This document shows, one piece after another, positions 5,424-22,477 of a stretch of DNA of 32,041 nt (within the stretch, counting starts at the first letter, position 1; each line of letters opens with the position of its first letter). The notes beneath the pieces were generated by a model. The model made no database searches. It was given only the letters and a program-made list of their open reading frames with translations, and was not told where the DNA came from. The stretch spans positions 1-32,041 of the forward strand of contig JBIOZG010000021.1 in assembly GCA_044870765.1 (NCBI GenBank), in the 5' to 3' direction. The translations under genes were made by a program, and so were the position numbers. The stretch is from Nitrososphaeraceae archaeon (lineage in GTDB: Archaea > Thermoproteota > Nitrososphaeria > Nitrososphaerales > Nitrososphaeraceae).

Positions 5424-5595
5424 GCAATACTCTGTAAAAAAAAATATTTAATTGTTTTATCTCAGTTCAAATTGAGTAGTTTCTTCTGATAATACTGTCT
5501 CAGCGTCGTAGAGTTCCTATCATTCCTGTGAGGTTGAGCCATTATAGTTTCGCAATTGGAATCCATCAGTGCAACTAGTCTTCAATGGTTACAGA

Positions 5596-5663
5596 GCAAC
5601 TAATTGGAGGAATTATTGGATTGAGTGATGAACAAGACCACACTCAATAATCCCATCCGCTGC
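5596..5663 (-). ncRNA. Candidate structured ncRNA, hairpin family copy C
   Basis: Shares a 19-nt identical block (gattgagtgatgaacaaga) with 21514-21532; folds on the minus strand with a G-U pair in the basal stem. Confidence 0.5.
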
Positions 5664-5914
5664 CTGTGTCTAAGCAAACCAATCATGATGGAAAGGTTCG
5701 AGTTGCCCTGTCCGATTTTCAATTGACTTTTGTAAAAAATTAACAAACTATAATTGTATTTATTTAATATTTAATTTTTAATATCCACTAACATCCAACA
5801 GCAACTCTTCTAGTTAATAATTAGGACATTGCGAAGAAGAAAGGATTGATTGACAATCATCTGGAGGTCTATTTGCGCTAGACTTATTACGTTGGAACTG
5901 TGAGCAAATACTGA

Positions 5915-6310: not shown

Positions 6311-6402
6311 TTAATAATGTTCCCTGCGATACAATTTCTCTAGAATCTTGACTAAGGCGCTGTATTTTTAGACTAAAATAGTATGTCGCACAAAACAGTT
6401 AG

Positions 6403-6996
6403 GTGAAGAGCACAATTAGTCAACCTAAAGTCTCTGATATTCCTAATAATCTAGTTTCACGATTGCTAAAACTGAAGTTAGGTACTCATTACCTTATTAT
6501 ATATCCAAATATAGAAACAGTTAGGAAAATTTATGCCCAGTACATACGAGTGCTTTTGGAAGAGAATAGAGTGGCAATTTTGTTTTTCCCTTATTATGAC
6601 ACAACAGATAAAGTTAGACAGGAGTTGATGCTCAAGGGTATCGATGTAAAAAAATATCAGCGTGACAACTCTCTTACACTGGTCGATTTTGCCAAAGTAA
6701 TTGATAACCCCTATCTCGGGATTCCCGCGGCCTTTGGCCTCAAAGAGTTCGTAAGCAAAATCAAACGTTTTCACAGCAAAAAATCTCTAATTGTTATTAC
6801 AGACATGTCTCTTTATAACCATCTTGGCGATATCGATGACCTCTTAAAATATGAAAGCTTTGGTCATCATGGTTCTGACGCTCTAAATTGGAAACAAATA
6901 TGTTTGTATCACAAACTAGATTTTAATTTGATGTTTACTAGTAAACAAAAACAGAAAATCTTTGATTACCATAAGGATAAAATTATTATAATTTAG
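6403..6996 (+). CDS. MEDS-like sensory domain protein
   Basis: GTHYLIIYP...YYDTTDKVRQEL...GIDV...QICLYH pattern typical of thaumarchaeal MEDS-like proteins; sits between two receiver genes. Confidence 0.65.
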   Translation: MKSTISQPKVSDIPNNLVSRLLKLKLGTHYLIIYPNIETVRKIYAQYIRVLLEENRVAILFFPYYDTTDKVRQELMLKGIDVKKYQRDNSLTLVDFAKVIDNPYLGIPAAFGLKEFVSKIKRFHSKKSLIVITDMSLYNHLGDIDDLLKYESFGHHGSDALNWKQICLYHKLDFNLMFTSKQKQKIFDYHKDKIIII

Positions 6997-7018
6997 CTTT
7001 TATAGGAGCGCGGGAGCT

Positions 7019-7453
7019 TCATCTTTGTTCTTGTACTTGTTGAATTTTTACTTGATTCTCTACTTCGGTAACTAAATTTTTCATTGTTATGGGCTTCTGT
7101 AGGATATAATCAATGAGGTTTCCTTTTTTATATTGGTGAAATACACTGTCTTCAACTTCAAAAGCCGTAATGAGTAATGCTCGAATGTTAGGATTAATAG
7201 CTTTTATTTGTTTTATTAACTCTATTCCATCCATACCTGGCATTCTCAAATCGGAAATTATAAGCACATACGAATTCCTATTAACCTTAAAATGTTCTAG
7301 GGCAATTAGTGGATTTGTAAATGCGTACACTGAAAAACCTGAAGCTAGTAATGCGTCACGGTAAAGCTGAACAATATCCCACTCATCATCGATTACTCCG
7401 ATGACTCCCGTCTTGTCTACCAAAGGACTTGCACTTCCTACTGAAATATCCAT
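7019..7453 (-). CDS. Stand-alone response-regulator receiver (CheY-like)
   Basis: VIDDE, IISDLRMPGMDG, LITA and QKP: all canonical receiver residues present. Confidence 0.93.
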   Translation of the reverse strand: MDISVGSASPLVDKTGVIGVIDDEWDIVQLYRDALLASGFSVYAFTNPLIALEHFKVNRNSYVLIISDLRMPGMDGIELIKQIKAINPNIRALLITAFEVEDSVFHQYKKGNLIDYILQKPITMKNLVTEVENQVKIQQVQEQR

Positions 7454-7689
7454 CCCTGTAAAACAAAGTTAATCCACAAGTTATTTAATAACTTTTTCTG
7501 GCGTCTAAAGCAAATTGTACACGAGGTTTTGGAAGAACTTAAGCAAAAGGATTTTGGAAAGGCAAAGACTTAAAGCTTACCTTCTTGATATGATAAGTTA
7601 AGAAATCCTCCATTAGAACTGATATCGTCAAGCATCCCTCCGTGTTTCTGTATTTGTCAAAAACGATTAACAACCGTTTCGGCCTGTGA

Positions 7690-8094
7690 CCAATTATAGC
7701 CGTAAATTCTTCCACCCATATAGTTTATGTACCTGATTCTCATCGAGATTTTATTCAGATATTTACCAGTGATGGTAACCTTTTAGACAAGCGGAGTGGA
7801 CAATTTAATAATCCGACAGGAATCACTGTTGGCGCTTCAGGACAAATGCGTGTTGCCAATGCGGGGGTCAATTCCGTTGTAGCTTTAGGAACTGGAGGCA
7901 ATAACTTTTTCACAAAGTGGCGAGGAAGTTACGGTTCCTACCCTGGTCAATTTAAAGAACCTAACGACGTTTCGCTAGATTCCTCGCGACTTGTCTATGT
8001 GGTTGATACTTGGAATCATCGCATCCAGGTATTCTATTGGAAGACAGATGTGCGAGAAACTGGTGGAGCTGTGCCAATTATCTGCAAATCATAA
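7690..8094 (+). pseudogene. NHL-repeat (beta-propeller) protein remnant
   Basis: Frame is open from 7690 (IAVNSSTHIVYVPDSHRDFIQIF...GQFNNPTGITV...GQFKEPNDVSLDSSRLVYVVDTWNHRIQVF) but preceded by in-frame TGA at 7687 with no start codon; only about 3 degenerate repeats. Confidence 0.72.
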
Positions 8095-8099
8095 TTAGC

Positions 8100-8369
8100 T
8101 CATTCCTTCTTTACCCATTCATCGCCTTGTTTCTTGTACTTTTGCTTAACAGCAGCCCATGCCGCTTTATGAGCGACTTCTTCAGCGCTTTGACTTTTAC
8201 CTCCTCGTCTTTTTGCAGGATTTTGATACTGTTTTATTGCGCTGGCGTGTGCTTTCTTGAAAATATGTTGGGCGTGCTCAGGTAATGAATCGATTTGCTT
8301 TTTTGTTCTGGCTGATAACGCCGTATCTATTTTGGTTTTTTTTCCACTCGAATTCTTTTTTTCAGGCAT
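8100..8369 (-). CDS. chaB: ChaB family protein
   Basis: LPEHAQHIFKKAHASA...AHKAAWAAVKQKYKKQGDEW is the ChaB signature. Confidence 0.92.
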   Translation of the reverse strand: MPEKKNSSGKKTKIDTALSARTKKQIDSLPEHAQHIFKKAHASAIKQYQNPAKRRGGKSQSAEEVAHKAAWAAVKQKYKKQGDEWVKKE

Positions 8370-8448
8370 GTATTATTAAATAGACAAAATCCTATTTATC
8401 TGGAAATACCTGCTAATTTTATGTTGATTAGTTATTTTTAATTTTGAA

Positions 8449-8548
8449 TCAGGTACAATTATTGCAAGCGTATTTCAACTGACCACTAACATTCTTTTGC
8501 TCTATTTCCACTTTCCCGCGTACCACATACTTCACAAGTTCCTTTCAT
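8449..8548 (-). pseudogene. Frameshifted Cys4 zinc-ribbon microprotein
   Basis: MKGTCEVCGTR in one frame and VEIEQKNVSGQLKYACNNCT* in the +1 frame; span is 100 nt (33 codons + 1). Confidence 0.55.
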
Positions 8549-8640
8549 TTGAATAAAATGACTCTTCAAAGTATTTATCGATTCACAAACGTCGATACAC
8601 AAAAAAGAAGTTGAATGTGGGGCTCTGAATAATCAATTTT

Positions 8641-8646
8641 TTTATA
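8641..8646 (+). promoter_or_regulatory. Putative archaeal TATA box of the 8669 microprotein gene (leaderless spacing)
   Basis: TTTATA ending 23 nt before the ATG. Confidence 0.5.
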
Positions 8647-8668
8647 TTTTGATGCTGTAAAATATAGT

Positions 8669-8842
8669 ATGGTCGTATTGGTCAAGTGTAAGAAGTGTGG
8701 CCAAGAATATCCATCAAAATTAATACAAGCAATTGATGAACAAGCACTGAAAAATAATATATTTACAAACATGAGTGAACCCTGTCCAAATTGCGGTCAA
8801 ATCTCTAGTTACGATAGTCCAGATTTTTACTGGAAGTTATAA
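8669..8842 (+). CDS. 57-aa zinc-ribbon protein (CKKCG...CPNCG)
   Basis: Hand translation MVVLVKCKKCGQEYPSKLIQAIDEQALKNNIFTNMSEPCPNCGQISSYDSPDFYWKL; TTTATA box about 25 nt upstream. Confidence 0.85.
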   Translation: MVVLVKCKKCGQEYPSKLIQAIDEQALKNNIFTNMSEPCPNCGQISSYDSPDFYWKL

Positions 8843-9110
8843 AAAACCGACGAAAGTTTACAGATAATTAACAAACGTGGACGTTACAGAATCTGATTAA
8901 ACCACTCTTTGTGAGCATAACTATACACTTTTTGAATACGTATTAAGAAGCGATTACATACGAAAAGGGACCGATTCAAAAAATGGTAAGCCCCCAGAAT
9001 AACACAAGCAAAAGTATATTCATCAGATAAAGAACAAACTTCTCACTATGATTTACTTGATGGATTAAGATTAAGTTTGAGGAGTTATAATATTAAATAA
9101 AAAATAAGTT

Positions 9111-9281
9111 CTACTTTGATTGTACTAAAATAGGTTTAGCAAAGTCAAAATTGTGTAATCCATTTCTTATTGCAGTAATCGTGCAGGGAATATTATTTTC
9201 CATAAAACTTGACCACATAACCTCACATGTTCTGCACTTAAATTCGCCTGGAGCGACATCTGGTTTTATTGTTCATGCCAT
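9111..9281 (-). pseudogene. Small Cys/His metal-binding protein with an in-frame TGA at codon 3
   Basis: MA*TIKPDVAPGEFKCRTCEVMWSSFMENNIPCTITAIRNGLHNFDFAKPILVQSK*; CxxC...C...H. Confidence 0.5.
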
Positions 9282-9365
9282 ATTATTATTATAGACCACG
9301 AGGTATATCAATCCTTTCTAATCACATGAGAAAACAAAAACAGAATTCAAAAAAATTATATTTCA

Positions 9366-9974
9366 TCAATCAATTCTTATAGATTTACTTTTTGCCTTAT
9401 CCTTTGACTTCTTGTTCAAAGTTATTTCAAGCAGTCCATTGATAAATGTGGATTTTACACTATCAATATCTACTTCAGCGGGTAAATCGATAAGCTCATG
9501 ATACTTCCTTTTCGGGTCTTCTGTTTTTATATCCACCTGACTCTCATTCGCATCTATCTTAATTTGTTCCTTAAAAACGCCTGGTAGTTCTACTGTAACT
9601 TTTACTTCTTTATCAGTAGTAGAGACCTCGGACAATGGCTGTCGTTCTGGCAAGATATTTGGTCTTGACCCTGCTCTCATTCGAGGCTTGACGTTTCCGA
9701 ACTCCCTTACGATGGGCTTCCCATCGGCCCCTATTGTGGTTGTAGAACCATACACTAATGGACCAATTTCCCTAACTTTCGCGCCGTCTTCTGTCACATA
9801 TTCTCTTATCAAATCTTTAGGTACTTTATTCTCGATATCTCTAAGATTTTCTTCAAATTCTCTTTCCATTTCTCTTCTCATTTCGTCAAATCCTTCAAAT
9901 AGACTGTTCCTTCGTCCAAAAGGCCTACTACCTGAGAAAAATCGATTAAACCAGTCGAAAGGCTCGATACTCAT
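9366..9974 (-). CDS. hsp20: Archaeal small heat-shock protein Hsp20
   Basis: GPLVYG...GKPIVREFGNVKP, VELPGV and FINGLLEITL alpha-crystallin-domain motifs. Confidence 0.95.
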   Translation of the reverse strand: MSIEPFDWFNRFFSGSRPFGRRNSLFEGFDEMRREMEREFEENLRDIENKVPKDLIREYVTEDGAKVREIGPLVYGSTTTIGADGKPIVREFGNVKPRMRAGSRPNILPERQPLSEVSTTDKEVKVTVELPGVFKEQIKIDANESQVDIKTEDPKRKYHELIDLPAEVDIDSVKSTFINGLLEITLNKKSKDKAKSKSIRID

Positions 9975-10629
9975 GGTAATTTATAACCATCATTATATTT
10001 AAAAATTAAATTTTTACTTTAAGATAAAAGGACGCTAATTATGGCAGAAAAAGTAAGAGTAATTTTTTTATAATATTTTTATGGTATAAGTATGACTATT
10101 CACACTGATGGGAGGGCTTTTTCTATTGGTGTTATGTATGTGGACGAAATTTTCGTCTGCAGTTGTTCCCTCCTGTCAGGTTTTAACTTTCTTATAATTT
10201 ATTGGCAATATCATTATCACGAACGTACTGAAGGCATCATACGTTCCCTGGTGGAACTATTTTCGTCCGTTATCGCGTACGGCTCTAGTTCCACCAGAGT
10301 AACTTTTTAAAACAAAAAGAATTATCATATGATATTAAGAAAATGAGTAAATCATTGGAAGTCAAAGACGTGACAGGCAATACACAAAAAAGTTTTGAAC
10401 TATTCAGAGACAAACTCATTTGATAATTTGTTCAAAGTTAAGACAGGAAACATTGGTCCAGGGTCTTATAGGTGGAACCACGGGGGAGACTATTCTAGTT
10501 CAACTAAACAGAAAAGACCAAGCTGGAAGAATCTCTACAAAATAAAATTACTTTGGTCCTTCAATACAACATAGTAATTAAGGCTTAGTCTAAAGCTGTT
10601 AAATATGAAGATAAGCATAAACTATTACC

Positions 10630-10809
10630 ATGACGAAATTTCGAGAGGAATCAAAAGACCCGATGTCACCTGAGAAAATAGCTGCACATGAACCAACGGC
10701 AGTAAGAAGAAATGCTAACGACCAGGAAATCGCTCAGGGCGGAAGGACAGGTGCTGAAACTCCCGAAGCAAAAGAGAAACTTAGAAGAAGCGGAATGACA
10801 AAACTGTAA
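10630..10809 (+). CDS. 59-aa hydrophilic hypothetical protein
   Basis: Hand translation MTKFREESKDPMSPEKIAAHEPTAVRRNANDQEIAQGGRTGAETPEAKEKLRRSGMTKL; TTAAAT about 25 nt upstream and a T-run downstream. Confidence 0.75.
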   Translation: MTKFREESKDPMSPEKIAAHEPTAVRRNANDQEIAQGGRTGAETPEAKEKLRRSGMTKL

Positions 10810-11059
10810 CCACCCGAAACTCGTCTATTTTTTTTTCAATTATTCAAATACTAAAACAAAAGTCTAATCAAACTAAACTAGGATAGATGAAACCTTTCCC
10901 AAAGGGCCTTGACCTTCTGAGTCGGGGCCATTGCGGAAGCTCCCATCAGCTCCTTAACCTTCTAATGCGTTCTTTGTCACTTTCTACTACTCAAAAATCT
11001 CGTTACCTTACACCAGAATAATTATTAATTGCTCCATGCAAAATATAGCAGCCAAACAC

Positions 11060-11126
11060 AGCAGCTGATGGGGCTCGGTTGTTTCTTGTTCATTCAACGG
11101 GCTTGCCTTCAAACCCATCACTTGCT
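11060..11126 (+). ncRNA. Candidate structured ncRNA, hairpin family copy A
   Basis: agcagctgatggg/cccatcacttgct stem, gttg/caac upper stem, loop tttcttgttcatt; TTATTAAT about 30 nt upstream. Confidence 0.55.
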
Positions 11127-11214
11127 AACTATTGTTACTTTAATAAGAGTTTCTGATGTGATTACCTTCTAATAAAGTCGATTTTAATGTTACTCTAAGT
11201 GAGTTCATTGCAGT

Positions 11215-11571
11215 TTAGAGGCCTTGTAATAATGTAAATATCTTTATTTCTATTCCACTTACTTTTGCATATTGTAAAAGTTCTGATGATGGATTGCCAT
11301 ATATTGTCAACGAACTAGGTGAGCCAAATTTTTTAAATAGTGCAAGCAACGGTTCACGAATGTTGGATTGATGCCTTAGAACAGCCTTTGAGCTCTGGTA
11401 CTTTTCGCGAATTTCACACTCAGTCTTATCGCTATTAAGAAACCAATCATATTGAATAGTTTCCGTATCTTTCTCTTTTGCGTGTTTTAAACACTCAGCA
11501 GCATGTTGGTTGAATTCCTCCAGCATACCTTTGGGAATTCTAAACTTGGCACTGACTTGTATCTCTGACAT
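11215..11571 (-). CDS. Antibiotic biosynthesis monooxygenase (ABM) domain / putative quinol monooxygenase
   Basis: AKFRIPKG..EEF...KEKD..TIQYDWF...CEIREKY.SS.AV..H ferredoxin-like ABM pattern. Confidence 0.85.
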   Translation of the reverse strand: MSEIQVSAKFRIPKGMLEEFNQHAAECLKHAKEKDTETIQYDWFLNSDKTECEIREKYQSSKAVLRHQSNIREPLLALFKKFGSPSSLTIYGNPSSELLQYAKVSGIEIKIFTLLQGL

Positions 11572-11730
11572 AGGTTCACCAATAATACCACGATTTAATT
11601 AAGTCTCTGATTGAGTGGTCTTAGATTATCTGCGTATTCTATTTGTTAGACCTCCTTTGACATCCTTTAAGAAGATTCTCTTATTCTATATTACACGAAT
11701 GTTGAATGCCACTCGAAAACTTGGGCCCAG

Positions 11731-11767
11731 AATTTGTGTCAATAACAATTCACATCCCCTTGGGCCC
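11731..11767 (+). repeat. Dispersed 37-bp repeat, copy 1 (copy 2 at 15275-15311)
   Basis: aatttgtgtcaataacaattcacatccccttgggccc vs aattcgtgtcaataacaattcacttccacttgggccc, 34/37 identical. Confidence 0.9.
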
Positions 11768-12058
11768 AATTTGATTACGACGCTTAAATGTTGGCCAACT
11801 GACAAAGAGTTGGGGGAAACATTGCTAGTCCGGTTAGCAAACTATGGTATATTTCTTGTTCCGGAAGGCGAAGTCGAGTGTTGGCTCAAGTTCTTGAATG
11901 TTTCTGGCCACGGTTCGGATTGGTTAGTAACGATATTTTCAAAAATTGGACAAAATGAAGATGATTCTGATTACATAAAACCAATCTCTGATAATGTTTG
12001 GAAATTCCTAGAAACCATATCCGAATGGATTCAAGATGCGAATAGACTAAGTACATGA
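11768..12058 (+). pseudogene. C-terminal fragment resembling OLD-family / ATP-dependent nucleases
   Basis: LANYGIFLVPEGEVECWLK...GHGSDWLVTIFSKIG...YIKP...VWKF resembles C-termini of such nucleases (recognised from memory, not searched); no ATPase domain upstream. Confidence 0.45.
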
Positions 12059-12404
12059 CAAACACGGCCGATCTAAAGATGGATGTAAATAAAATAAGAA
12101 TTCTTTACTTTCGTCCCTTAATAGGGCATTATTTGCAGTTTCATAATCTCCCGGCGTTTTACTTGAATTTTGCAGAATAATCAACTATAATTGTACTTAA
12201 TGTATTAAATCGCAATATTGTCAATCAAAAATATAGGGTAAATTGGTTGGTTGCAATCAAGTAGAGGTAATAGCGAAATAATGAATCAAAGTTTTTAATA
12301 TGAAAGATGATATTATTATTCGATAATCTGTCTAGATCCCTGGGACAAAAACTAAGTGCTAATGGAAGTAAGACTTATGTAGTTTTGCTAACATTCCAAG
12401 CGTA

Positions 12405-13370
12405 ATGCTTGGCAGTAGACGTATCACATTAATTGTCGTTAGTATTACTCTATTATCATTAGTGATCGTAGCTACAGTTTCCGGAGAAACTTTTTTTATT
12501 TATGCACAAAATAAATCAAAATATGCAGCAAAATTGATTGGAAAAAGTGTAGTTCCCCCAGTTAATACAACTGCAGCCGGTAGTGGGGAGCTAAGAGGAA
12601 CTATCAAAATACAAAATGGTAACACAACAACACAAATTGCAAGTAATAATAATACTGACGATGTAAACTCTTTCAAAAATAAAGACTCAAATAGTACTGT
12701 TCCTACGAAGGCAACTTCTACTGCAACTACCGGCTTAGCTACCACAACTGATACCATATCAACTTTCGGTAATCCTAATGAAAATAATCTGGTTGATGAA
12801 TTAGTGAAAACAGGAAACTTTACAGAAGCTGAAGCCAGAGAATTCGTGACTAATGATATGCAGAGTGAAAATGGAACTAATACTACATCCGATACCAACG
12901 CAACTTCTAATGCAGATACCAATACTGCTGATACCAACGCAACTTCTAATGCAGATACCAATACTGGAAATAGATCTAAGTCCGATGATACTTCCTCGAC
13001 CAACAACGAAGACATCAATGATCAATCTTCAAATAATAACAACAATAATCCTAGACACTACGATGACCTTGACGAGTTGGTTAACGACATTAAGAATAGC
13101 GATGTAGACACTGAAGAAATATCATTGAATGCTTTCCAAGATTCAGGTGCTTATCAAGGAGCTGATCAAGAAACCCGAGACTGTATAGATCTAGCGGGAA
13201 AAATAGGACATAATCTTGGTGATCAGGAAATAGTGAACTGTTCGGAGGATCCGAGCTTTTACAAGAACGAAATATCTAACAACAATGACAACAACAATGA
13301 CAACAGTGCTGACGACAGCAGCAACAGCGCCGACCAGATCAGCGACAGTGGCAACGACAATAACAATTAA
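12405..13370 (+). CDS. Secreted Asn/Asp/Thr-rich protein with truncated CHRD-like N-terminus and an acidic C-terminal domain
   Basis: Hydrophobic signal segment; YAAKLIGKSVVPPVNTTAAG is CHRD-like; low-complexity linker; C-terminal domain similar to 15727-16065. Confidence 0.75.
   Translation: MLGSRRITLIVVSITLLSLVIVATVSGETFFIYAQNKSKYAAKLIGKSVVPPVNTTAAGSGELRGTIKIQNGNTTTQIASNNNTDDVNSFKNKDSNSTVPTKATSTATTGLATTTDTISTFGNPNENNLVDELVKTGNFTEAEAREFVTNDMQSENGTNTTSDTNATSNADTNTADTNATSNADTNTGNRSKSDDTSSTNNEDINDQSSNNNNNNPRHYDDLDELVNDIKNSDVDTEEISLNAFQDSGAYQGADQETRDCIDLAGKIGHNLGDQEIVNCSEDPSFYKNEISNNNDNNNDNSADDSSNSADQISDSGNDNNN
12891..12966 (+). repeat. In-frame tandem repeat, 39-bp period (DTNATSNADTNT)
   Basis: 37 identical nt at 12891-12927 and 12930-12966. 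Confidence 0.95.
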
Positions 13371-13547
13371 TGAAATCATCTAATGATGCTGGTAACAAGG
13401 TGTTATATCTCAATTTAGTAACATCTTCATATTTCTAAATTATTATAATGGTAGGTAAATAAATGCATGAAGATGTGTTGCAAAGATGTTCTATCTCTTA
13501 GTAACATTGTCTCTGTGTCGAATCAACCGTACTGGGTTATTAATTGG

Positions 13548-13802
13548 TTAATAAAACAACCAATCAATTTTCAACAGATAAATGCTACCTGTGTTGGCAT
13601 CTACAACAAATAAATCATTTTTGTAGTCAATACCCATCTTCTCGGAATTATAGAAATTTATCGCTGTTGGCGCAATTGGTGTATTCCAAATCAATTCAGG
13701 ATCACTATACTTACCAGTGCTATCAAAATCAACCCATTCTATCATCGGCAGTGGGATAAACATAGACTTTGGAAAGACCGAAATCAACAATATGGCTATC
13801 AA
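13548..13802 (-). pseudogene. Internally deleted PQQ-dependent (glucose/sorbosone) dehydrogenase remnant
   Basis: FDSTGKYSDPELIWNTPIAPTAINFYNSEKMGIDYKNDLFV parallels the C-terminal part of 16549-17856 and is joined directly to a signal-peptide-like segment. Confidence 0.75.
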
Positions 13803-13839
13803 TATTACCCGTATAAATTCTCAAGGTGGCAATCCTTTT

Positions 13840-14076
13840 ATGAACCAGAGAATTTCTGACAATGACACTAAGATAACATATTACCAGATTTCAAAACTAA
13901 TAGATACCGAAATCACTGATGAAAGAGAAAGACAAGAGGATAGAAATACACTTGAAGAAATAAAAAAGGATATTAATTCTAAACGGATTCCATTTCTTAT
14001 TTTACAGAAATTAAAGAAATTTGAAAAAATCTATCCAATGGCATTGCCCTGGGTCATGAAAGCGATTGAGCTTTAA
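13840..14076 (+). CDS. 78-aa helical hypothetical protein
   Basis: ATG at 13840 with TATAAAT about 22 nt upstream; avoids overlap with the opposite-strand remnant. Confidence 0.6.
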   Translation: MNQRISDNDTKITYYQISKLIDTEITDERERQEDRNTLEEIKKDINSKRIPFLILQKLKKFEKIYPMALPWVMKAIEL

Positions 14077-14298
14077 ATGAATAATGGATCAGTTAATTTA
14101 TAAAATATGGAGTTGTGCAAAAAACAGGACAAAAAATTTTCAGCAAATGGATCTTTCAAAGTAAATATTGTGGATATCTATCGGGGTTATGCTAGATTTT
14201 AGTTCAAGAGTTTCGACAGTCTTACGTAGTTTAAATATCTAAATTCTATAGTTTTAATCTTGAATAACCTTATAAAGAAGTTCTTCATAACTTTGGGA

Positions 14299-14877
14299 AT
14301 GTCGAGACTCCGAAGAAACGAAAAAGTGATTATCTTAGGCGTGTTTACTTTAGGATTAGCCGCCATGTTGGGGATACTAATTGCACCGCTAGCCTTCGCG
14401 CAACAACCTGGATTTACACCAGCGGCACAATTATCGCATACTATATCAATCCAACCAAATGTTACTAAGCCAATATATGTTCCTATGAACTCGAACGATT
14501 ACATCAATGGGGGTATTACACACAGCAGCACTAGAAACCCAGCTGATGTAATTATCAATCAAGATGGATCTTACCTAATCGTAGCAGCAGGTCAGGTGGG
14601 AAAGACTTCAGGTAGTACAACTTGTAATGTTGATTTGTGGCTTAGTCAGAATGGTGAATATGTAGGAAATAGTAACACTCGCGCTTCAGTCAATGCAGTA
14701 AATGATACCATTGTTCTCGTGTCACAAGCAATTATGCCATTGAAGGCGAATGATATCATAAATACAGTAATGTCAGTATCTGCTACCAATCAAGGTTGTG
14801 GTCTCATTAATACTGCACCACCTAGTGAACCCAATATTCCTGCTATCATATTCTCCCTTGTAAGGATAGGTAATTGA
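14299..14877 (+). CDS. Secreted C1q/TNF-like (BclA C-terminal-like) jelly-roll protein
   Basis: Signal peptide ending AFA-Q; IINQDGSYLI...LWLSQNG...QAIMPLKANDII strand pattern; start could also be 14260. Confidence 0.65.
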   Translation: MSRLRRNEKVIILGVFTLGLAAMLGILIAPLAFAQQPGFTPAAQLSHTISIQPNVTKPIYVPMNSNDYINGGITHSSTRNPADVIINQDGSYLIVAAGQVGKTSGSTTCNVDLWLSQNGEYVGNSNTRASVNAVNDTIVLVSQAIMPLKANDIINTVMSVSATNQGCGLINTAPPSEPNIPAIIFSLVRIGN

Positions 14878-15043
14878 TAAATCGTTCAGTGGCATAGGAT
14901 CAGTAGCAGACGGCCTAGGTGGAGCCCTCGTTTCATTCCTTTAGCGATCGCTCATCACGCTGCCGTTGCTGTAATGGGGTCCTACAGATTTTAAATACCT
15001 AAATTCTAAAGATTTTTATCTACATAAATAATTTTTCATAAAT

Positions 15044-15289
15044 TTGTTAGATGAAAGATCTCGCCTTCCAACTATTATCAACAATGTAATAGTTTTTGTC
15101 TTGGGAGTTTTAATAGTTGTTTCACTTTACCATTATCTTAAAACTAAATTTGACAATCCTCAGCCCTTCGTGATTTATGAAGACACTATGGCTCGGGCAC
15201 TCAATGTAAACGAGAAGTTGATTCTACTTTTTACAGGATTCCAACATGAATTTAGGGTTAAAAATTGGGATAAAAATTCGTGTCAATAA
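15044..15289 (+). CDS. Possible small membrane protein or gene fragment
   Basis: One hydrophobic helix; TTG start; 3' end runs into the dispersed repeat at 15275. Confidence 0.35.
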   Translation: MLDERSRLPTIINNVIVFVLGVLIVVSLYHYLKTKFDNPQPFVIYEDTMARALNVNEKLILLFTGFQHEFRVKNWDKNSCQ

Positions 15290-15311
15290 CAATTCACTTC
15301 CACTTGGGCCC
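15275..15311 (+). repeat. Dispersed 37-bp repeat, copy 2
   Basis: 34/37 identical to 11731-11767. Confidence 0.9.
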
Positions 15312-15387
15312 TAACTAGAGTCTTTCTTTATAGATACAGTACGGTATCAAAAAAGGATAATTTAGATGAAGTTAACTAGTAGTAATG

Positions 15388-15467
15388 CTTTCAGTAGACA
15401 GGACTTAATTTTAAAAGGTTATTCGCACTTTCAGTAGACAGGACTTAATTTTAAAAGGTTATTCGCA
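15388..15467 (+). repeat. Perfect 40-bp tandem duplication
   Basis: ctttcagtagacaggacttaattttaaaaggttattcgca twice, followed by ctt. Confidence 0.97.
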
Positions 15468-15663
15468 CTTAAAACTGTTAGATATACGGGAAAGAAAAGA
15501 CTTTGGTGTACAAAGGAATCGGGTCAAAATAGATGTTGTAGTAGTTGATACCTATTTAGAATATGAAGATTGTGGAAAAATCGCCAATTGAAATGTTTTT
15601 GTCATCCTAATGGGACTCGACATCGCTCGTAGTGGTACGTGCCAGGTCAGGTAAATGCGATTG

Positions 15664-15696
15664 CATTTAAGTCTTGCTTAAATTAGATCCTCAAAT
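15664..15696 (+). repeat. 33-bp direct repeat, copy 1 (copy 2 at 16358-16390)
   Basis: 30/33 identical; contains TTAAG-N5-CTTAA palindrome. Confidence 0.9.
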
Positions 15697-15726
15697 GCTA
15701 ATAGTTAAGGAATAATCGATTTTTCG

Positions 15727-16065
15727 ATGAACAAGAAACTATTAGTGAATAGGATGTTCCTATTGGCATCATTTTTAACCATAATGCTAGGCGCCTCAAT
15801 TGTTGCAGCGAATGGTCACGTGTTTGCGGCTAAAAATATCTGGGATGATGATGACACTATGGAGGAACTTGTCAAAGATATTGACAATGGTAAAGATGAT
15901 GACAATTCGATGAATTGGCACGATTTCAAAAATTCAAAAATCTTCAAACAAGAAGATCTTGAAACACAAGAGTGTATAAAAAATAGACAGGAACTTTCAA
16001 ATAATCTCGCAGACTATGAAGTTCTACGATGTTTTGAAGATTCAGATTACGCATACGACAAGTGA
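15727..16065 (+). CDS. Small secreted acidic protein
   Basis: MNKK + hydrophobic core + VFA-A signal peptide; two-Cys acidic domain shared with 12405-13370. Confidence 0.85.
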   Translation: MNKKLLVNRMFLLASFLTIMLGASIVAANGHVFAAKNIWDDDDTMEELVKDIDNGKDDDNSMNWHDFKNSKIFKQEDLETQECIKNRQELSNNLADYEVLRCFEDSDYAYDK

Positions 16066-16357
16066 ATCGCGAGTAATTCAACTTTTCTTATTTCTTCTTT
16101 TAGTAACAAAGATGAATATGAAATGAATAATCAATATTCAAGGAGTATATTTAATTACTAATATCATCGCTAGCCTTGTAGCCCCTAAGTTCCTTTAATA
16201 TTGCTTGTTGGCTATAGTCGAATACGTTTACTAACTTTGTTAAGCGCACTCATAGATTCCGCTCGAATACTTGTAGATCATTATGATTATATAAAGTTTT
16301 TAGCTTAATGATGAGATAGTGGGTGACGAATGTATTCTCCATTCAGCATGTAACGTC

Positions 16358-16390
16358 CACTTAAGTCTTGCTTAATTTAGATCCTGAAAT
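16358..16390 (+). repeat. 33-bp direct repeat, copy 2
   Basis: cacttaagtcttgcttaatttagatcctgaaat vs catttaagtcttgcttaaattagatcctcaaat. Confidence 0.9.
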
Positions 16391-16548
16391 CTTATTAAAT
16401 TTTAAACCTTATTCATCTTGCAAATCGACATCTCTTCATTGAAACTGGTGGGGGAATCGAGTTTCAAACAGCCCACCAGTTTTACATCGAATGGTTTTCT
16501 ATTAGCGCTGTAATATTTTCAACCCTTGATTATTTTTTATAACATGAT

Positions 16549-17856
16549 CTATTCTGGCATTATTCGAAATATTTTGCCCTGACCTATAGATACCACGTAT
16601 AGGTAACCATCTGGGCCTACTGTAAGGTCTGTGACTCCGCCAAATCCGTCGCCGAATATTACATCCTCAGCCCCGACGTTGATGGGGTTCTGAATATATC
16701 TCTGTGCAAGGCCTCGGGGGAGCAAAAGGTCATTCCTTTCTTGGTTCAACTTGAAATGATATATATGACCATTATGAACGCTGCCCACGAATATATCGTT
16801 TCTATATTGGCTCCCCAATTTATCAGAGTATAAAAATATGATTGCGGTCAGTCCTGCGCTCTTGGTCCATACTAACTTGGGTTCTCCATAATGTCCTCTG
16901 TTATCAAAAGTTATGAGTTCGTCGGTGTCAAAACTTTTCTGGGATGAAGAAAATCCATAGATTTTATTCCATCCACTATTGAATCCTGGTTCAACAAGAT
17001 TTATTTCATCGCCATCTTGTGGCCCGTTCTCCGTGTCCCATAAGAATCCTGTTATGGGATCGAAATTTAATCCAAAACTATTCCTTATGCCATACGCATA
17101 ATACAATCGTAAAGGCATAGAATCGGAGAGTATGCCTTCATCTACAATTTTCCCATCTTGCGTTAACCTTAAAATTCCACTGCGTCCGTCCGCAACTTTT
17201 CCACGGTCAAAATTTTGCGTCTGTGTTGCTTCAAAATCTATTTTAAATGAACCATCCACATCTCCGACTGGAATGTATATGTTCTGGTCAGGGCCGATTT
17301 CTATTGCACCACCGTTATGTCTCGGTCCGGGGTAAGCTGGTAAGTTCAAAAGAAGTTTTGGATTTACAAGCTTATTATCAACAAATTCGTACCTGTAGAG
17401 GCGGTTTCCAATTGGCGCTGTTCCCTTTCGATCATCCCCATCTTTTCCATCAATTTCAGTAAAGTATAGGAAAACATATGTCTTGAGACCGTTTTTAGAA
17501 ATTGCAATCCCACACATTCCTCTTTCAACAGAGTTCGCAACATTGACATCAAGAATTGGCTCGTCTAAAATTTTTCCGTTTAACACGCGCATTACGGTGC
17601 CCTTATCTTTCTCCAAAACTAGAAAATCGTCAGGACCAAGGAAGGCCATAGTCGTAGGAGTTTCTAACCCATTTACCACCTGTTCAACTTTGAGTCTAGA
17701 ATCAAAAACATGCGGATCGTCTGGACTTAAGCTAAACGGTCGTTCTCGTAATATTATTTGACCGTATGTCTGAGAAAAATAAAAAGTGATAGTGACGATT
17801 ATGATAACCGCAATAATGAGAGAAATATACTTCCCCGTCGCCAAACGACAATACAA
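16549..17856 (-). CDS. PQQ-dependent sugar dehydrogenase (glucose/sorbosone dehydrogenase family)
   Basis: ERGMCGIA, HNGGAIEIGPD, YAYGIRNSFGLNFDP, DEINLVEPGFNSGW and GPDGYLYV motifs; N-terminal TM helix. Confidence 0.93.
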   Translation of the reverse strand: MYCRLATGKYISLIIAVIIIVTITFYFSQTYGQIILRERPFSLSPDDPHVFDSRLKVEQVVNGLETPTTMAFLGPDDFLVLEKDKGTVMRVLNGKILDEPILDVNVANSVERGMCGIAISKNGLKTYVFLYFTEIDGKDGDDRKGTAPIGNRLYRYEFVDNKLVNPKLLLNLPAYPGPRHNGGAIEIGPDQNIYIPVGDVDGSFKIDFEATQTQNFDRGKVADGRSGILRLTQDGKIVDEGILSDSMPLRLYYAYGIRNSFGLNFDPITGFLWDTENGPQDGDEINLVEPGFNSGWNKIYGFSSSQKSFDTDELITFDNRGHYGEPKLVWTKSAGLTAIIFLYSDKLGSQYRNDIFVGSVHNGHIYHFKLNQERNDLLLPRGLAQRYIQNPINVGAEDVIFGDGFGGVTDLTVGPDGYLYVVSIGQGKIFRIMPE

Positions 17857-18134
17857 ATTTGAATTTCGATTTCAGAGCATGAAAAGACCAATATTAATTT
17901 TCGTTAGTAGAAATGCCTACCCAGTACTGCAATCGAAGATGCGCAGTTTGCTAAAGATATTATTTATATCCGGACTACAGTTAATCTAGGAACCTCTTGT
18001 GAGCTATATGATAAGGTGAAAAGTAGGTTGGTCGCCGCTTCCTTTGCTTCTTGACTTTTAAAGTATTAAAAGAACATTGTTCTGAATGGGGACACCAACT
18101 AAATTATATACTCGAATTTTGTGAAAGAGGGGCA

Positions 18135-18923
18135 ATGACCAACCATACCAAAATCAAATTATCAGGTTCGCTGCTTTTCATAACGATAGTTTTCATGATT
18201 TTCTCTTTGAGCTTTATCAATTCAAATCATGTATCTGCCGCAGGAGAGTTTTCAGTGGAGGCTAAAATAAATCTAAAAAAATTAAATCATCCCGATAAAC
18301 TGAAGGTTGTTGCCTCGGCTAATGGTGATACCGAAACAAAATATCTAACAGGTAACGATCTAGATTCAAATACTGCTATCGTTTCATTTGAATTCAACCA
18401 GAAGAATGACATTGTTACTGTCGGTAGTAGGGATGAGTATTTGGTTTGTGCATACGCCATTGATGCTGTAACAGCTCAGATGGAATCCTATTCTTGTGCT
18501 GAGGGTAATATCGAGCATCTAAATGGAAAAAACACAATAAGCTTGGGTTCTGGGAGTGCAAAGACCTTGTCCACTGGGTCGTTCCAAACTGTTAGTGGGG
18601 GTGAAATAAAGAATCCGACTATTAGAGTCTGGATACCGCTTTCCGATAGAAAGGATGTAAAGGATCTAAAAGTGGTTGCCATGATTAAAGGTGAATTCGC
18701 ATCAAAGACAATAGATGCACATAAGTTACTCAAAGAATCTGACGACAATACACTAATCATTCCACTAGTATTTGATAAGACTCCTGAAATTGGCGCCATT
18801 CAGAAGGGGGATTTAATATTTGCTTGCGTATCTGCCGATGAGTTAAATCCGCCTGAAGGAACAGAATGTGAGCACAGAGTAACATCACATACTGGTCACA
18901 TCCATAACTTAGTTGCAAGATGA
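18135..18923 (+). CDS. Secreted protein with two internally duplicated beta domains
   Basis: Signal peptide from ATG 18135 (ending VSA-A); LKVVASANG...DEYLVC and LKVVAMIKG...DLIFAC repeats. Confidence 0.8.
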   Translation: MTNHTKIKLSGSLLFITIVFMIFSLSFINSNHVSAAGEFSVEAKINLKKLNHPDKLKVVASANGDTETKYLTGNDLDSNTAIVSFEFNQKNDIVTVGSRDEYLVCAYAIDAVTAQMESYSCAEGNIEHLNGKNTISLGSGSAKTLSTGSFQTVSGGEIKNPTIRVWIPLSDRKDVKDLKVVAMIKGEFASKTIDAHKLLKESDDNTLIIPLVFDKTPEIGAIQKGDLIFACVSADELNPPEGTECEHRVTSHTGHIHNLVAR

Positions 18924-19059
18924 AAATAAATTAGCCCGAGCCAAAATTAATCCAAAAAATAATTGCAAAGCTTAATTTTATTTCTTGACTTGTTTAATGC
19001 AAGAGAATTAAATTATTAGATCAAAAAAGTCAAATGTGATAATAATGTATCTATATATC

Positions 19060-19338
19060 ATGAAAATAGAATTCAATTGTTTTGGGTCAAGTACATGTAT
19101 GAGCATTGTTTTCCTGGTTTTCGTTTTCTCATATTTTTCTTTTTTTCCCTACTCTTTTGCCCAATTTCAAGCAAATATTAGTTCAAACTGTGAAAACGGA
19201 AATTGCACCACAACTATTTGTATCGATGATAATCCTTGCAAAACAACCAATTCAAATTCCACAAATATGACATCAATGAATGATTTATTACAAAATAAAA
19301 CTAATCCAAATCCTAATTTGCCTGGAGAGATTGTTTAA
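19060..19338 (+). CDS. Small secreted Cys-rich protein
   Basis: Signal peptide ending SFA-Q; CENGNCTTTICIDDNPC; exact start uncertain. Confidence 0.7.
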   Translation: MKIEFNCFGSSTCMSIVFLVFVFSYFSFFPYSFAQFQANISSNCENGNCTTTICIDDNPCKTTNSNSTNMTSMNDLLQNKTNPNPNLPGEIV

Positions 19339-19853
19339 TATCAGAATTGCATCTTCAGTTAAGGACGAATTCTAATTTTACTTCAATTCTTTACCAGATT
19401 TAGAACTTAGAAGTAATTGATTCTCTAGATGGATCGCATCAATTAAAATACTAAAAACATGTGACGATATATTAGATCACTCTAATTAGATATGAAAAGA
19501 AAAATAATTAAAATTCAAATGATATCGCCAATAGTAAATTACGCATAAATCAATTTCTGGAATTATAAAGGCATTGGGAACCGGTGTGATTACCGGCGTT
19601 CAGACGATATTCAAATGTGAAAGGTTGATCACATTTGGAATGATGATCATCTCTGGAATTGTAGTGTTGCTGTAGTTAAGACCATATATCTAAATGTATC
19701 ACTGGCAATGCTTGTTTATTTGTAAAACTGAAATTGAAGGAAAAGATCATGTATTGAACTATAGCCGTTATTAAAATAAAGCCTAAATCCTTATGACTTT
19801 TTTTTATTTTTTAATTCTCATAAATTTATTTTAGAGTTAGTAACGAGAAACGA

Positions 19854-20309
19854 TCATTTGGCTACTAATACAGGACAATGGGCGTACGTTACCACACCAC
19901 CGGCTACGCTTCCTACGAGCATTTTTTTAATTCCAGAAAGACCCCTACTGCCAACGACAATCATGTCTACTTTGTTCTTGTCGGCGTATTCCACAATCTC
20001 CTTTACGACTGATGAGATGCCCATAATAACATCTGTTTTTACCTTTACACCTTTTTCTTTTGACTTCTGCTTTACCTTATCCACATGAGTCTCTCCTCTT
20101 TGCGTTGCAACCATCATGACATTCTTTAGAGCCCGGGGTAATCTGGGCGTTATTGTGTCTTCAAGATAATTATACCTGATATCCGGCGATATAACATATA
20201 TCGCGATTAATTCTGCATCAAGTCTTTTGGCTATGTCTATTGCCTGGGAGCTCGCATTAAGAGAGGGCTTGGAACCATCGACTGCTACCAGTATCCTTCG
20301 AATTGTCAA
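19854..20309 (-). CDS. uspA: Universal stress protein
   Basis: ILVAVDGS, DMIVVGSRGLSG...GSV and HCPVLV motifs. Confidence 0.95.
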   Translation of the reverse strand: MTIRRILVAVDGSKPSLNASSQAIDIAKRLDAELIAIYVISPDIRYNYLEDTITPRLPRALKNVMMVATQRGETHVDKVKQKSKEKGVKVKTDVIMGISSVVKEIVEYADKNKVDMIVVGSRGLSGIKKMLVGSVAGGVVTYAHCPVLVAK

Positions 20310-20468
20310 CTTGTCAACTAGTTTGAGTTGGGATTTATTATTATATAGGTATTTAGTAGTATGGACTGCTTGTGCAAGAAATTTAATAAAGTGCGAGGCA
20401 GATCAACACGTGACGTCAAAAACTAAAGTATATAATTTAGAGAGCAAATTGATGTGCATAGAAACAAA

Positions 20469-20645
20469 ATGAAAGATGACCTGCTTATTTTTGTTATTAT
20501 CGCTGTAGTAACAACATTGGCTGTCATAATGTTCATTCTTTATGCTAATGCTCCAGTATATCCTACTCAATCTATTAACTTTAATCTTAATTCCAATATA
20601 AAGAACGAATTTATTAATGGTTACACCTTAGTCTTTATGAAATAA
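20469..20645 (+). CDS. Small single-TM protein
   Basis: MKDDLLIFVIIAVVTTLAVIMFILYA hydrophobic helix. Confidence 0.5.
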   Translation: MKDDLLIFVIIAVVTTLAVIMFILYANAPVYPTQSINFNLNSNIKNEFINGYTLVFMK

Positions 20646-20836
20646 AAAATGCAATTAAAAGAAACAGCATTCAGTTATTCACATAGTTAGCAGAGTTGCG
20701 TAATCAGAAAAAACTTTATTTTCCATTCCTTATTCAATTTTTAATATTGAAAACAAATTGAAATGTAGTCACAAGCCACCTGATTGAGACATAGATAAAT
20801 TATTTGTTGGACTAATTCTAAAGAGGGGGAACTGAT

Positions 20837-21187
20837 TTACATAATAAAAAAAAACAAAGACAACGATTTTTTAAAATTCGCGTAGTATTAGCCCTCGGAC
20901 TGTCACTTGTAGCTGACCTTCTTGATTATGTGGCAGCACCAATATTTGGAGTACCAATAATAGGTGACGTATTTGATGTTATTGTATCGGGCTTGTTGTT
21001 TTCGATAACTAGAAGTAAAGTCTTACTTATAATGAATCTAGCCGAGTTTATTCCATTTCTTGGTGACTTTCTACCAGTGTATACTATTTCTACCTTAATG
21101 TGGATACTTAGAGAGCAGGAAGAAGAAAATAAACTCGATCTACTGAAACGCGTCGCAAGGTTACTTTCAAATAAAAGTACAAGATAA
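20837..21187 (+). CDS. Small multi-TM membrane protein; start uncertain
   Basis: Frame open from 20822: ...KIRVVLALGLSLVADLLDYVAAPIFGVPIIGDVFD...AEFIPFLGDFLPVYT; first canonical start is GTG 20930, inside the hydrophobic region. Confidence 0.65.
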   Translation, partial: LHNKKKQRQRFFKIRVVLALGLSLVADLLDYVAAPIFGVPIIGDVFDVIVSGLLFSITRSKVLLIMNLAEFIPFLGDFLPVYTISTLMWILREQEEENKLDLLKRVARLLSNKSTR

Positions 21188-21490
21188 TTAAATTGAACAC
21201 AGGAAAAATTTTATATGTTGCCAGTAGAAATTAATTTAAACAATAATTCGATACATTGCACACTATACTAACTTACAGTAAACGATCTGTACGAATTCCA
21301 TACGAATTCCACCGTGCTTAATGGAATTGTGACGATTAGAAAAAGGCTTCCGTGTCACACCAGGCCAAAAAATTAATCGAATTCTTTTATTTAATGATTG
21401 AAGTGTTCTTACATCCGAAAATAAATTATGATCAGAAGACACGTCTTATATGAAATTAATTTCATCTCTTCCAATTGGTCTTTTAAATTG

Positions 21491-21558
21491 GACAACTGAT
21501 GGGATTTTGGGCCGATTGAGTGATGAACAAGAAACAATCAAGCACCCCATCAGTTGTT
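21491..21558 (-). ncRNA. Candidate structured ncRNA, hairpin family copy B
   Basis: Perfect 12-bp stem acaactgatggg (21492-21503) / cccatcagttgt (21546-21557); gattg/caatc upper stem; TTTATA on the minus strand at about 21593-21598. Confidence 0.55.
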
Positions 21559-21740
21559 TCTGGTTGCGTTAAAAAGTTGTTCGCAAACAAAGTATAAAAA
21601 TACTGTAGTTACAATCTTCTATAAGATTCATTTCAGGGACTTTTTATCTACCTATCGGCCATTGCTATCTAACACATTATAACACTATATCGTACTTTGT
21701 AATGCCACCTTTCTTATAATATCAGTGGTACCCACAATTA

Positions 21741-21914
21741 ATGAAAAGTGGTAGATTCTGTGATCTATGTAGGAAAGAAATCCCGAACAGTGATGTGATA
21801 CCCATGGAAATACAAGGAGAAAACTACATTTTTGATAGCTATGATTGTGTCAGGATATTTCACAAATTAAATGCGGTGTACGGCAATATACTTGTTGGAG
21901 AAACATCACATTGA
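21741..21914 (+). CDS. 57-aa TRASH/YHS-like metal-binding protein
   Basis: Hand translation MKSGRFCDLCRKEIPNSDVIPMEIQGENYIFDSYDCVRIFHKLNAVYGNILVGETSH; CxxC...G..Y.FDS..C; TTATAA upstream. Confidence 0.82.
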   Translation: MKSGRFCDLCRKEIPNSDVIPMEIQGENYIFDSYDCVRIFHKLNAVYGNILVGETSH

Positions 21915-21964
21915 TAGTATCATCAGGTTCTACCATTAGTAACAACAACTTACACGGCGCTCAT

Positions 21965-22477
21965 TTGAACGGAGTTAAAGATCTCGTATTCTCATTACCG
22001 ATTTTCGTGTTTTCGTTGATATTAGTTGCAAGCCATCCCGCATTTGCAGCTTCGGCGCTTGACCCATCAGATTCTATTCTAGCAAAGTGGTATGACAAGG
22101 CGCTTTCTGTAAACCAGAACAATCTTCCAGCGTTAGTAGAAAAAGGGACTGACCTTGTCACTCAAGGGGATGGAGAACAAGCCATAACATGGCTTGATAA
22201 AGCACTGAATATAGATCCAAGCAATTTAATGGCATTAGTGAGCAAAGGTTCTGCCCTTCGAGACATGGGTAAATATCAGGAGGCAATTGTAGTGTACGAC
22301 AGAGTGCTAACGATCGACCCAAGTGATGTCTACGCAATAGGCGGCAAAGCAGATTCTCTATATGGTTCTGGACAACATGAACAAGCCGTTGTCTTGATAG
22401 ATAAGGCTCTGGAACTAAATCCAAGCGACGGTAAGATACAGCAGGTTAAAGAGTCATTTCAGCAACCTATAAACTAG
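21965..22477 (+). CDS. Secreted tetratricopeptide-repeat protein
   Basis: TTG start gives a signal peptide ending AFA-A; 3-4 TPRs (WYDKAL, ALVSKG, YDRVLTIDP). Confidence 0.88.
   Translation: MNGVKDLVFSLPIFVFSLILVASHPAFAASALDPSDSILAKWYDKALSVNQNNLPALVEKGTDLVTQGDGEQAITWLDKALNIDPSNLMALVSKGSALRDMGKYQEAIVVYDRVLTIDPSDVYAIGGKADSLYGSGQHEQAVVLIDKALELNPSDGKIQQVKESFQQPIN

Follow-up and report, generated by a model that had tools for sequence, protein, structure and literature searches.

We report a multi-copy family of structured hairpin RNA genes, in one genus of soil Nitrososphaeraceae, with a nearly invariant loop, UUUCUUGUUCAU, that is complementary to the start-codon region of a few gene families. 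Judging from sequence, we consider it fairly probable that these hairpins are trans-acting antisense sRNAs, which would pair with the 5' ends of a few secreted- or membrane-protein mRNAs and mask their start. The window, by which we mean the whole stretch of 32,041 nucleotides that was analysed, is contig C21 of a 2.02-Mb archaeal genome with 36% GC. A thermosome, an archaemetzincin and other genes are consistent with an archaeon.

Hairpin copies in the window

The hairpins of the window, with the putative promoter element of one of them, are the following.

11060..11126, plus strand: candidate sRNA copy A (covariance model score 70.2 bits, E 4e-16)
21491..21558, minus strand: candidate sRNA copy B (79.5 bits, E 7e-19)
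21591..21599, minus strand: TATA-like UUUUUAUAC, 33-41 nt upstream of copy B
5595..5664, minus strand: candidate sRNA copy C, a diverged member with the loop UGGUCUUGUUCAUCAC (fold -28.8 kcal/mol, z -4.25)
16445..16479, plus strand: clamp hairpin with another loop, CUGGUGGG...CCCACCAG, outside the anti-AUG subfamily

Copy B folds at -26.6 kcal/mol (z -4.29), and 0 of 200 shuffled sequences fold as well. It has a 14-bp outer stem with the clamp CUGAUGGG/CCCAUCAG, an inner helix UUGAUUG/CAAUCGG, which makes it a GAUUG-arm type, and a 16-nt loop, UUUCUUGUUCAUCACU, carrying GUUUCUUGUUCAUC. The core of this loop is predicted to be unpaired with a probability of 0.94. The TATA-like element is conserved in orthologous loci and would be the promoter of copy B, given how far TATA boxes usually lie from transcription starts in archaea.

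Copy A has the arm CGGUUG and carries GUUUCUUGUUCAU in its loop, at 11081-11093, with an AAACAC box (11054-11059) directly abutting the hairpin. Copy C scores weakly with the covariance model (20.5 bits, E 0.097) and better with nhmmer (E 1.6e-4).

Four RNA runs (X15-X18) were compared with positions 5000-22000 of the window, as assembled contigs that carry no strand or end information. These contigs give no cover of copy A, and the cover of copy B comes from long contigs that are only about 93-95% alike (X15 record 8) and that likewise have no strand or end information.

Copy B is a vertically inherited gene in conserved synteny. Among 28 loci examined, 9, all from other genomes, have the same TPR-gene neighbour, and 7 of these 9 also have the neighbouring 85-aa ORF. 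The flanking proteins are 53-87% identical at these loci and the loop is unchanged.

Extent of the hairpin family

The genome of the window was searched with nhmmer and with a covariance model (CM R1) built from five copies. Both together gave 13 strong and several weaker members. The covariance model alone gave 20 hits at E<=1, one of which repeats another locus on its opposite strand, leaving about 19 loci in the genome. Elsewhere in the genus, 30 of 36 other Nitrososphaeraceae genomes gave hits, as many as 31 in a single genome; among 24 genomes drawn from 19 other families of the order, 0 did. These tallies take in one or two unpublished genomes (G020, G034), the sequences of which are left out here.

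A family-wide draw of 141 genomes gave hits in 14 of 18 genomes of the genus, in 1 of 7 of one other genus, and in 0 of 115 genomes of 16 further genera. The one genome of the other genus (G131), a 4.9-Mb bin with 6% contamination, has two hits, the best with an E of 5e-8. These could be contamination by the genus of the window, or this could be a real second genus that holds the family.

The exact 19-nt loop pattern occurs in 109 stretches of public genomes. Among the 80 matches listed, 52 are titled Nitrososphaeraceae, Nitrososphaerales, Thaumarchaeota or Thermoproteota archaeon, including the isolates TA_21, TA_15 and the TH series; the remaining 28 comprise scattered bacteria plus a single Woesearchaeota record.

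Rfam 15 has 0 hits in the window, and the best hit for the family is mir-245, with 22.3 bits against a threshold of 70. A full-text search of the published literature found no description of the hairpins. This is a new family; the kind to which we assign it, the trans-acting antisense sRNA, is itself known.

Structure and strand

The hairpins are a genuine structured-RNA gene family. Across 33 distinct copies, for the most part the best of each genome, 92.7% of the cells of the two-helix structure are paired, against 19-49% in slid controls. Ten of the 21 stem pairs have changed on both sides, and none of 500 column shuffles reaches the observed covariation score. The stems hold 72 G.U cells and only 9 A.C cells, an excess that places the selected fold on the strand carrying GUUUCUUGUUCAU.

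The loop consensus is UUUCUUGUUCAUCAYU, of 16 nt. The exact 13-mer is present in 22 of the 33 distinct copies, and CUUGUUCA in 30. For the copies of this genome the loop core is predicted to be mostly unpaired, with a median probability of 0.70 and with 7 of 15 copies at 0.8 or above.

On the same strand as the loop, a TATA-like box lies 33-41 nt upstream of the hairpin and a T-rich tract follows it, with a (C)UAAACAC(A) or AACGCAACCAGA box directly abutting the hairpin upstream. Going by the usual archaeal spacing, transcription would start some 10 nt ahead of the clamp. A structured part of about 65 nt, with a short 5' leader and a 3' tail, would probably make up a transcript of 85-95 nt.

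As for the class of RNA, the family has a covariation-backed conserved structure and a conserved seed, predicted to be accessible, with a conserved complementary target site, by which a base-pairing sRNA is recognised. Other classes were considered and rejected. The boxes of an archaeal C/D box sRNA are missing, since the RNA strand has CUGAUGG or CUGGUGG as its 5' clamp and CCAYCAG on the 3' side; some copies do have a C-box-like GUGAUGA, but solely on their opposite strand. Directly 3' of the stem come UCC, AAC, UUA, CAA and others, and none of the ACA triplets that an archaeal H/ACA sRNA would have. A type I toxin-antitoxin was set aside because the targets are 110-319-aa proteins, predicted to be secreted, at other loci. 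The family was also compared with MITEs and other mobile repeats: the clamp does form an inverted repeat, but copy B keeps its synteny in 9 genomes, and what distinguishes the copies is compensatory change.

The loop matches the start of a secreted-protein gene

The gene facing the loop, with its surroundings, comprises the following features.

15664..15703, plus strand: repeated upstream element (family D8, 85% identity) with the TATA-like TTAAATTA at 15678-15685
15726..15739, plus strand: loop-complementary site on the putative target mRNA, GATGAACAAGAAAC, identical to 21522-21535
15727..16065, plus strand: candidate target gene (group 1), a 112-aa ORF that starts MNKKLLVNRMFLLASFLTIMLGASIVAANG and is signal-peptide-like

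The site at 15726-15739 is made of one base before the ATG, the ATG itself, codons 2-4 and one further base. The initial annotation had noticed that this sequence spans the start codon of a secreted-protein gene and occurs again at 21522-21535, and direct location of GATGAACAAGAAAC, on the plus strand at both places, agrees. The complementarities that it described could also be read directly off the sequence: 14 nt for the loop of copy B (16 of 17 when extended), 13 nt for copy A at 11081-11093, and 11 nt, GATGAACAAGA, for copy C. The loop duplex with this site has an energy of -21.2 kcal/mol, which is the joint best among 2330 candidate starts.

Base composition predicts 4e-4 occurrences of the 14-mer in the window. 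For the 13-mer it predicts 0.15 in the 2.0-Mb genome, where 7 exact ones are seen. Five of these lie in loci of the hairpin family (C21:11081, C21:21523, C28:36830, C59:20693 and C15:56784), two coincide with the ATG of paralogous genes, at 15727 of the window and at C2:67267, and none is found elsewhere in the genome. The match is not due to chance; the site is conserved across the genus as well.

The number of targets appears to be small. The initial annotation had proposed that hairpins with an anti-AUG loop regulate a whole class of secreted-protein mRNAs. A structured family, an invariant loop and a few gene families are what is left of this proposal, and a general MNKK regulon is not, as the loop motif is not enriched at start codons genome-wide. 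When the duplex energies of the 18-nt loop were computed against 2330 first-ATG start windows, 8 duplexes reached -16 kcal/mol or lower; 60 shuffled loops averaged 3.3 such duplexes and reached 16 at most. The codons AAC-AAG are used in 4 of 19 MNK starts (21%), equal to the background of internal N-K pairs (20.7%). Given this lack of enrichment and the background codon use, the targets would be a few defined gene families and not MNKK signal peptides generally. The 9-mer AACAAGAAA follows 1 of the 2330 first ATGs, and the same is true of five of its permutations.

The candidate target gene, its paralogues and its surroundings

The product of the gene at 15727 looks like a secreted protein, from its signal-peptide-like N-terminus, and has a small, helical, acidic domain with two conserved Cys. 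It has no Pfam or NCBIfam match. The AF2 model has a mean pLDDT of 72.5, with 0 Foldseek hits against the PDB and a best VIA Z of 3.1, and the only Atlas match is to a Nitrososphaerota hypothetical cluster (0.85). One soil metatranscriptome contig covers positions 15836-15989 with 1 difference.

An intact 110-aa paralogue, 75% identical to the protein of the window, is encoded at C2:67267, and homologues are present in 37 of 39 other genomes of the genus. Within the window, a 321-aa ORF with Thr/Asn-rich repeats (12405-13370) has a C-terminal part (13062-13259) homologous to the domain of the target protein. Soil RNA-library contigs pile up at 12371-12937, which only hints at high expression, as contig depth measures expression poorly.

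The element at 15664-15703 is probably the promoter region of the 15727 gene. This 40-nt repeat recurs at 16358-16397 and upstream of another paralogue, C5:3121. The copy at 16358-16397 stands upstream of the clamp hairpin at 16445, and the repeat looks like a promoter module shared by a protein gene and a hairpin RNA.

Other repeats were also observed. A perfect 40-nt tandem duplication (CTTTCAGTAGACAGGACTTAATTTTAAAAGGTTATTCGCA, twice; family D7) occupies the intergenic positions 15388-15467, upstream of the target gene. A 52-nt repeat (family D6) is found at 11716-11767 and 15260-15311, with 85% identity and with the ends CCCCTTGGGCCC and CCACTTGGGCCC. Finally, large Laminin_G_3 repeat proteins with internal 597-nt repeats are encoded at 27438-29552 and 31280-32041; these appear to be ordinary surface proteins.

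Conservation of the candidate target sites in relatives

Co-conservation in relatives, one of the checks named in the initial annotation, is seen at the start of the gene. The exact 13-mer starts 24 of 28 homologue loci examined. In the 23 group-2 orthologues (those of the C2 type), which are 62-76% identical to the protein of the window, the first 18 nt are ATGAACAAGAAACAACCA, so that the 5' complement is kept without synonymous change. Codons 2-6 use a single codon each (5 of 5), compared with 9 of 62 other conserved degenerate columns; the p value of 6e-5 is naive, because the orthologues are related. AAC (30%) and AAG (35%) are minor codons genome-wide. The upstream region and codons 7 onward drift.

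This 18-mer is the perfect complement of UGGUUGUUUCUUGUUCAU, that is, of the loop and the 5' arm of the inner helix in the GG-arm copies. The only changes seen in it are A to G (L184, L189 and L199), all of them still able to pair, as G.U, with the U-rich loop. In this genome, the predicted C2 mRNA matches the GG-arm sRNAs over 19-22 nt, with a continuous 22-nt duplex of -45.7 kcal/mol (duplexfold), and cofolding the two gives a ddG of -15 to -17. The 15727 target pairs over only 14 nt, and copy B stays closed in a pseudoknot-free cofold (ddG -2.2), a weak value that is uninformative because such a cofold cannot model pairing between a loop and a linear strand with the stem kept. An extra pairing of the 3' part of the sRNA with sequence upstream of the C2 gene was dropped, since that sequence is probably upstream of the transcription start.

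The same start is found in other families of the genus. MNKKQSM... proteins begin with ATGAACAAGAAACAATCAATG, which complements the GAUUG-arm sRNAs. A 319-aa protein, which we take to be metallophosphoesterase-like from recognised motifs, begins with the 13-mer, as do small membrane proteins of the MNKKQP(P)IAK... type. Furthermore, a family of 133-aa MNKKLL... proteins (group 5) is orthologous to C35:715-1110 of this genome, which starts ATGATGAACAGGAAGCC and is tied for the best loop duplex. ATGAACARG is kept in 19 of 22 full-length MNKKLL... orthologues, and most of the changes are again A to G.

In three genomes without an sRNA hit (G001, G031, G033) and in one with a single hit (G006), the group-5 homologue starts ATGCATATTGAG. 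This pattern is weak but consistent support, as it is probably one evolutionary event. With the query used, no group-2 orthologue was found in the sRNA-bearing genomes G004, G009, G003, G006 and G028; G028 has other genes with the start motif.

Strict covariation between loop and target, another check that had been proposed, did not emerge. One sRNA variant, at C59:20024-20086 (UUUCCUGUUCAU), has a 12-nt match to the start of the group-5 gene in this genome. Its only other occurrence found is in G011, where the target lacks the corresponding change. The 12-mer has 38 matches in the genus, compared with 34 for a reversed control. Among 30 of these loci that were fetched, 2 are family members, and the rest are mostly unrelated sequence, in which the ATG opens a frame of only 5-25 codons.

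The only close linkage of an sRNA and a target seen is in G025, where a copy at C133:34555-34620 is convergent with a target-family gene at 34774-35094 (MNKKQSIRN...), about 150 nt apart.

As for the 5' ends of the mRNAs, the additional genes that start with the 13-mer have a TATA-like box that stops 21-25 nt short of the ATG. Transcription should therefore start at or next to the AUG, and these mRNAs are probably leaderless. The 15727 gene, with its TATA-like box 41 nt upstream, would have a leader of about 17-20 nt.

Proposed mechanism

The reading that we favour would work as follows. The covarying two-helix scaffold presents the loop, and the loop, followed by the 5' arm of the inner helix, would pair with the first 13-22 nt of mRNAs beginning AUGAACAAGAAAC. 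Candidate targets in this genome are the 15727 gene of the window and its paralogue C2:67267, with C35:715-1110 as a looser fit. A free 5' end on the mRNA would let the duplex begin in the loop and then zip into the stem arm. Most target mRNAs appear to be leaderless, and the duplex would thus bury a 5'-terminal AUG and block initiation. The analysis establishes the family with its structure and strand, the invariance of the loop, its complementarity to the starts and the conservation of the target site in sequence; we infer transcription of the sRNAs, leaderless starts, pairing in vivo and repression as the direction of regulation. Counting against an antisense role is the copy number of the hairpins, which is far above the number of targets found.

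We also give some thought to a wider possibility, which is speculative and which we would not expect to hold. In a scaffolded antisense system with several regulons, in which leaderless 5' ends are captured, the anti-AUG hairpins might form the largest branch. Different antisense loops would then be displayed on one shared hairpin scaffold, which might have a protein partner of its own. The clamp CUGRUGGG/CCCAYCAG frames at least 24 hairpins in the 2-Mb genome, many with other loops.

Counted as CTGRTGG...CCAYCAG, 24 clamp loci are seen, against about 1.5 by chance (a back-of-envelope estimate). About 9 of the 24 carry the anti-AUG loop, and many are followed by T runs. Within the window, clamp hairpins with unrelated loops lie at 16445-16479 and 10248-10297. 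The clamp hairpins may be a wider scaffolded sRNA superfamily.

Alternative readings

The alternative that survives best is that the hairpin genes are relics, derived by inverted duplication of the 5' end of an MNKKQP gene, with a loop that is now kept for another reason (a protein partner or other targets, for instance) and with no regulation of these mRNAs involved. In some copies the reverse strand is indeed identical to the gene beyond the loop, over 19-22 nt, with patches upstream of the ATG as well; the hairpin copies far outnumber the targets, and there is no general enrichment at starts. A relic fails to explain, however, why 23 orthologues have frozen synonymous sites at the target when the gene is otherwise drifting, as is the region upstream of it. 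Nor does it account for an identical start of 13-17 nt in genes for non-homologous proteins, the metallophosphoesterase-like one among them. We regard this origin without function as unlikely, although it deserves to be kept in mind.

In a second alternative, the 13-18-mer is a signal in DNA or mRNA that is read by a protein (an operator, or an element for leaderless initiation or secretion targeting), and the hairpins are decoys or share the site. The motif does lie at the probable transcription start and is conserved at the nucleotide level. A DNA site, however, needs no scaffold, whereas the covarying stems and the G.U excess indicate selection on a folded RNA of the complementary strand, and a protein with affinity for AUGAAC... 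RNA would leave the complementary RNA unbound. This makes a protein-read signal quite improbable.

It is more improbable still that the other strand is the functional one, with small ORFs or 5' gene fragments that begin MNKKQ(P/S) and the inverted repeat serving as a terminator or attenuator. Most copies read ATG AAC AAG AAA CAA CC/TC on that strand, and the loop change G to A in C28:20747 is synonymous there. We rejected the small-ORF reading because several copies have lost the start codon (GTG, ACG, CTG, ATA), L056 and L058 have a stop at codon 4, and the reverse ORFs range from 13 to 32 codons without conserved length. Moreover, the stems have 72 G.U against 9 A.C cells, and both the TATA-like box and the T tract have the orientation that fits the loop strand.

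Lastly, a chance match in AT-rich DNA, aided by common MNKK signal-peptide starts, is hardly credible: the genome does have 19 MNK starts, A-rich codons after many ATGs and other permutations of the 9-mer once each at starts, yet the exact 13-mers far exceed expectation, fall into only two classes and are conserved at the site across the genus.

Significance and relation to known systems

The genus consists of abundant, uncultured soil nitrifiers. Leaderless mRNAs are common in archaea, and how they are controlled at initiation is an open question, for which an invariant loop and a frozen AUG region offer a concrete, testable pair. If the wider scaffolded system proves true, it would be a general answer to how leaderless messages are controlled at initiation. 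Since the targets are lineage-specific secreted proteins, the antisense sRNA could point to a coordinated cell-surface or secreted response. A 2014 review states that no sRNA study existed at the time for Thaumarchaeota (PMC4152357). The regulatory RNAs of ammonia-oxidising archaea are essentially uncharted.

In bacteria, the sibling sRNAs Qrr and LhrC are encoded by several paralogous genes per genome, with a shared seed and their own promoters. They depend on bacterial chaperones and on pairing at the ribosome-binding site. The hairpins are like them in being multi-copy paralogous genes with one conserved seed; there is no relation in sequence or structure, and Rfam gives no hit.

The closest mechanical likeness is to RNA-OUT of IS10, where the loop of a stable antisense hairpin pairs first with the 5' end of the RNA-IN mRNA and then along one side of the stem. 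The resulting duplex covers the start codon and blocks translation, RNA-OUT being encoded in cis, opposite its single target in the transposon. Pairing that begins in the loop at an mRNA 5' end and proceeds into the stem arm is what we propose here. Unlike RNA-OUT, the hairpin family is trans-encoded, multi-copy, chromosomal and vertically inherited, and it would face several host-gene targets that are archaeal and probably leaderless.

Finally, sRNA162 of Methanosarcina mazei is an archaeal trans-acting sRNA that uses a single-stranded region to mask both the start codon and the ribosome-binding site of the mRNA it targets (PMC4152357). In the same account the masking region is an unstructured linker, the gene is single-copy, the sRNA also acts in cis, and the target mRNA is leadered and bicistronic (PMC4152357). 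As archaeal trans-acting sRNAs, the hairpins would resemble it in masking a start codon. Compared with sRNA162, the family reported here differs in showing its seed in a hairpin loop, in being multi-copy, with 2-31 covariance model hits per genome, and in facing what would be 5'-terminal AUGs. The hairpin family lies outside both the IS10 RNA-OUT and the sRNA162 families.
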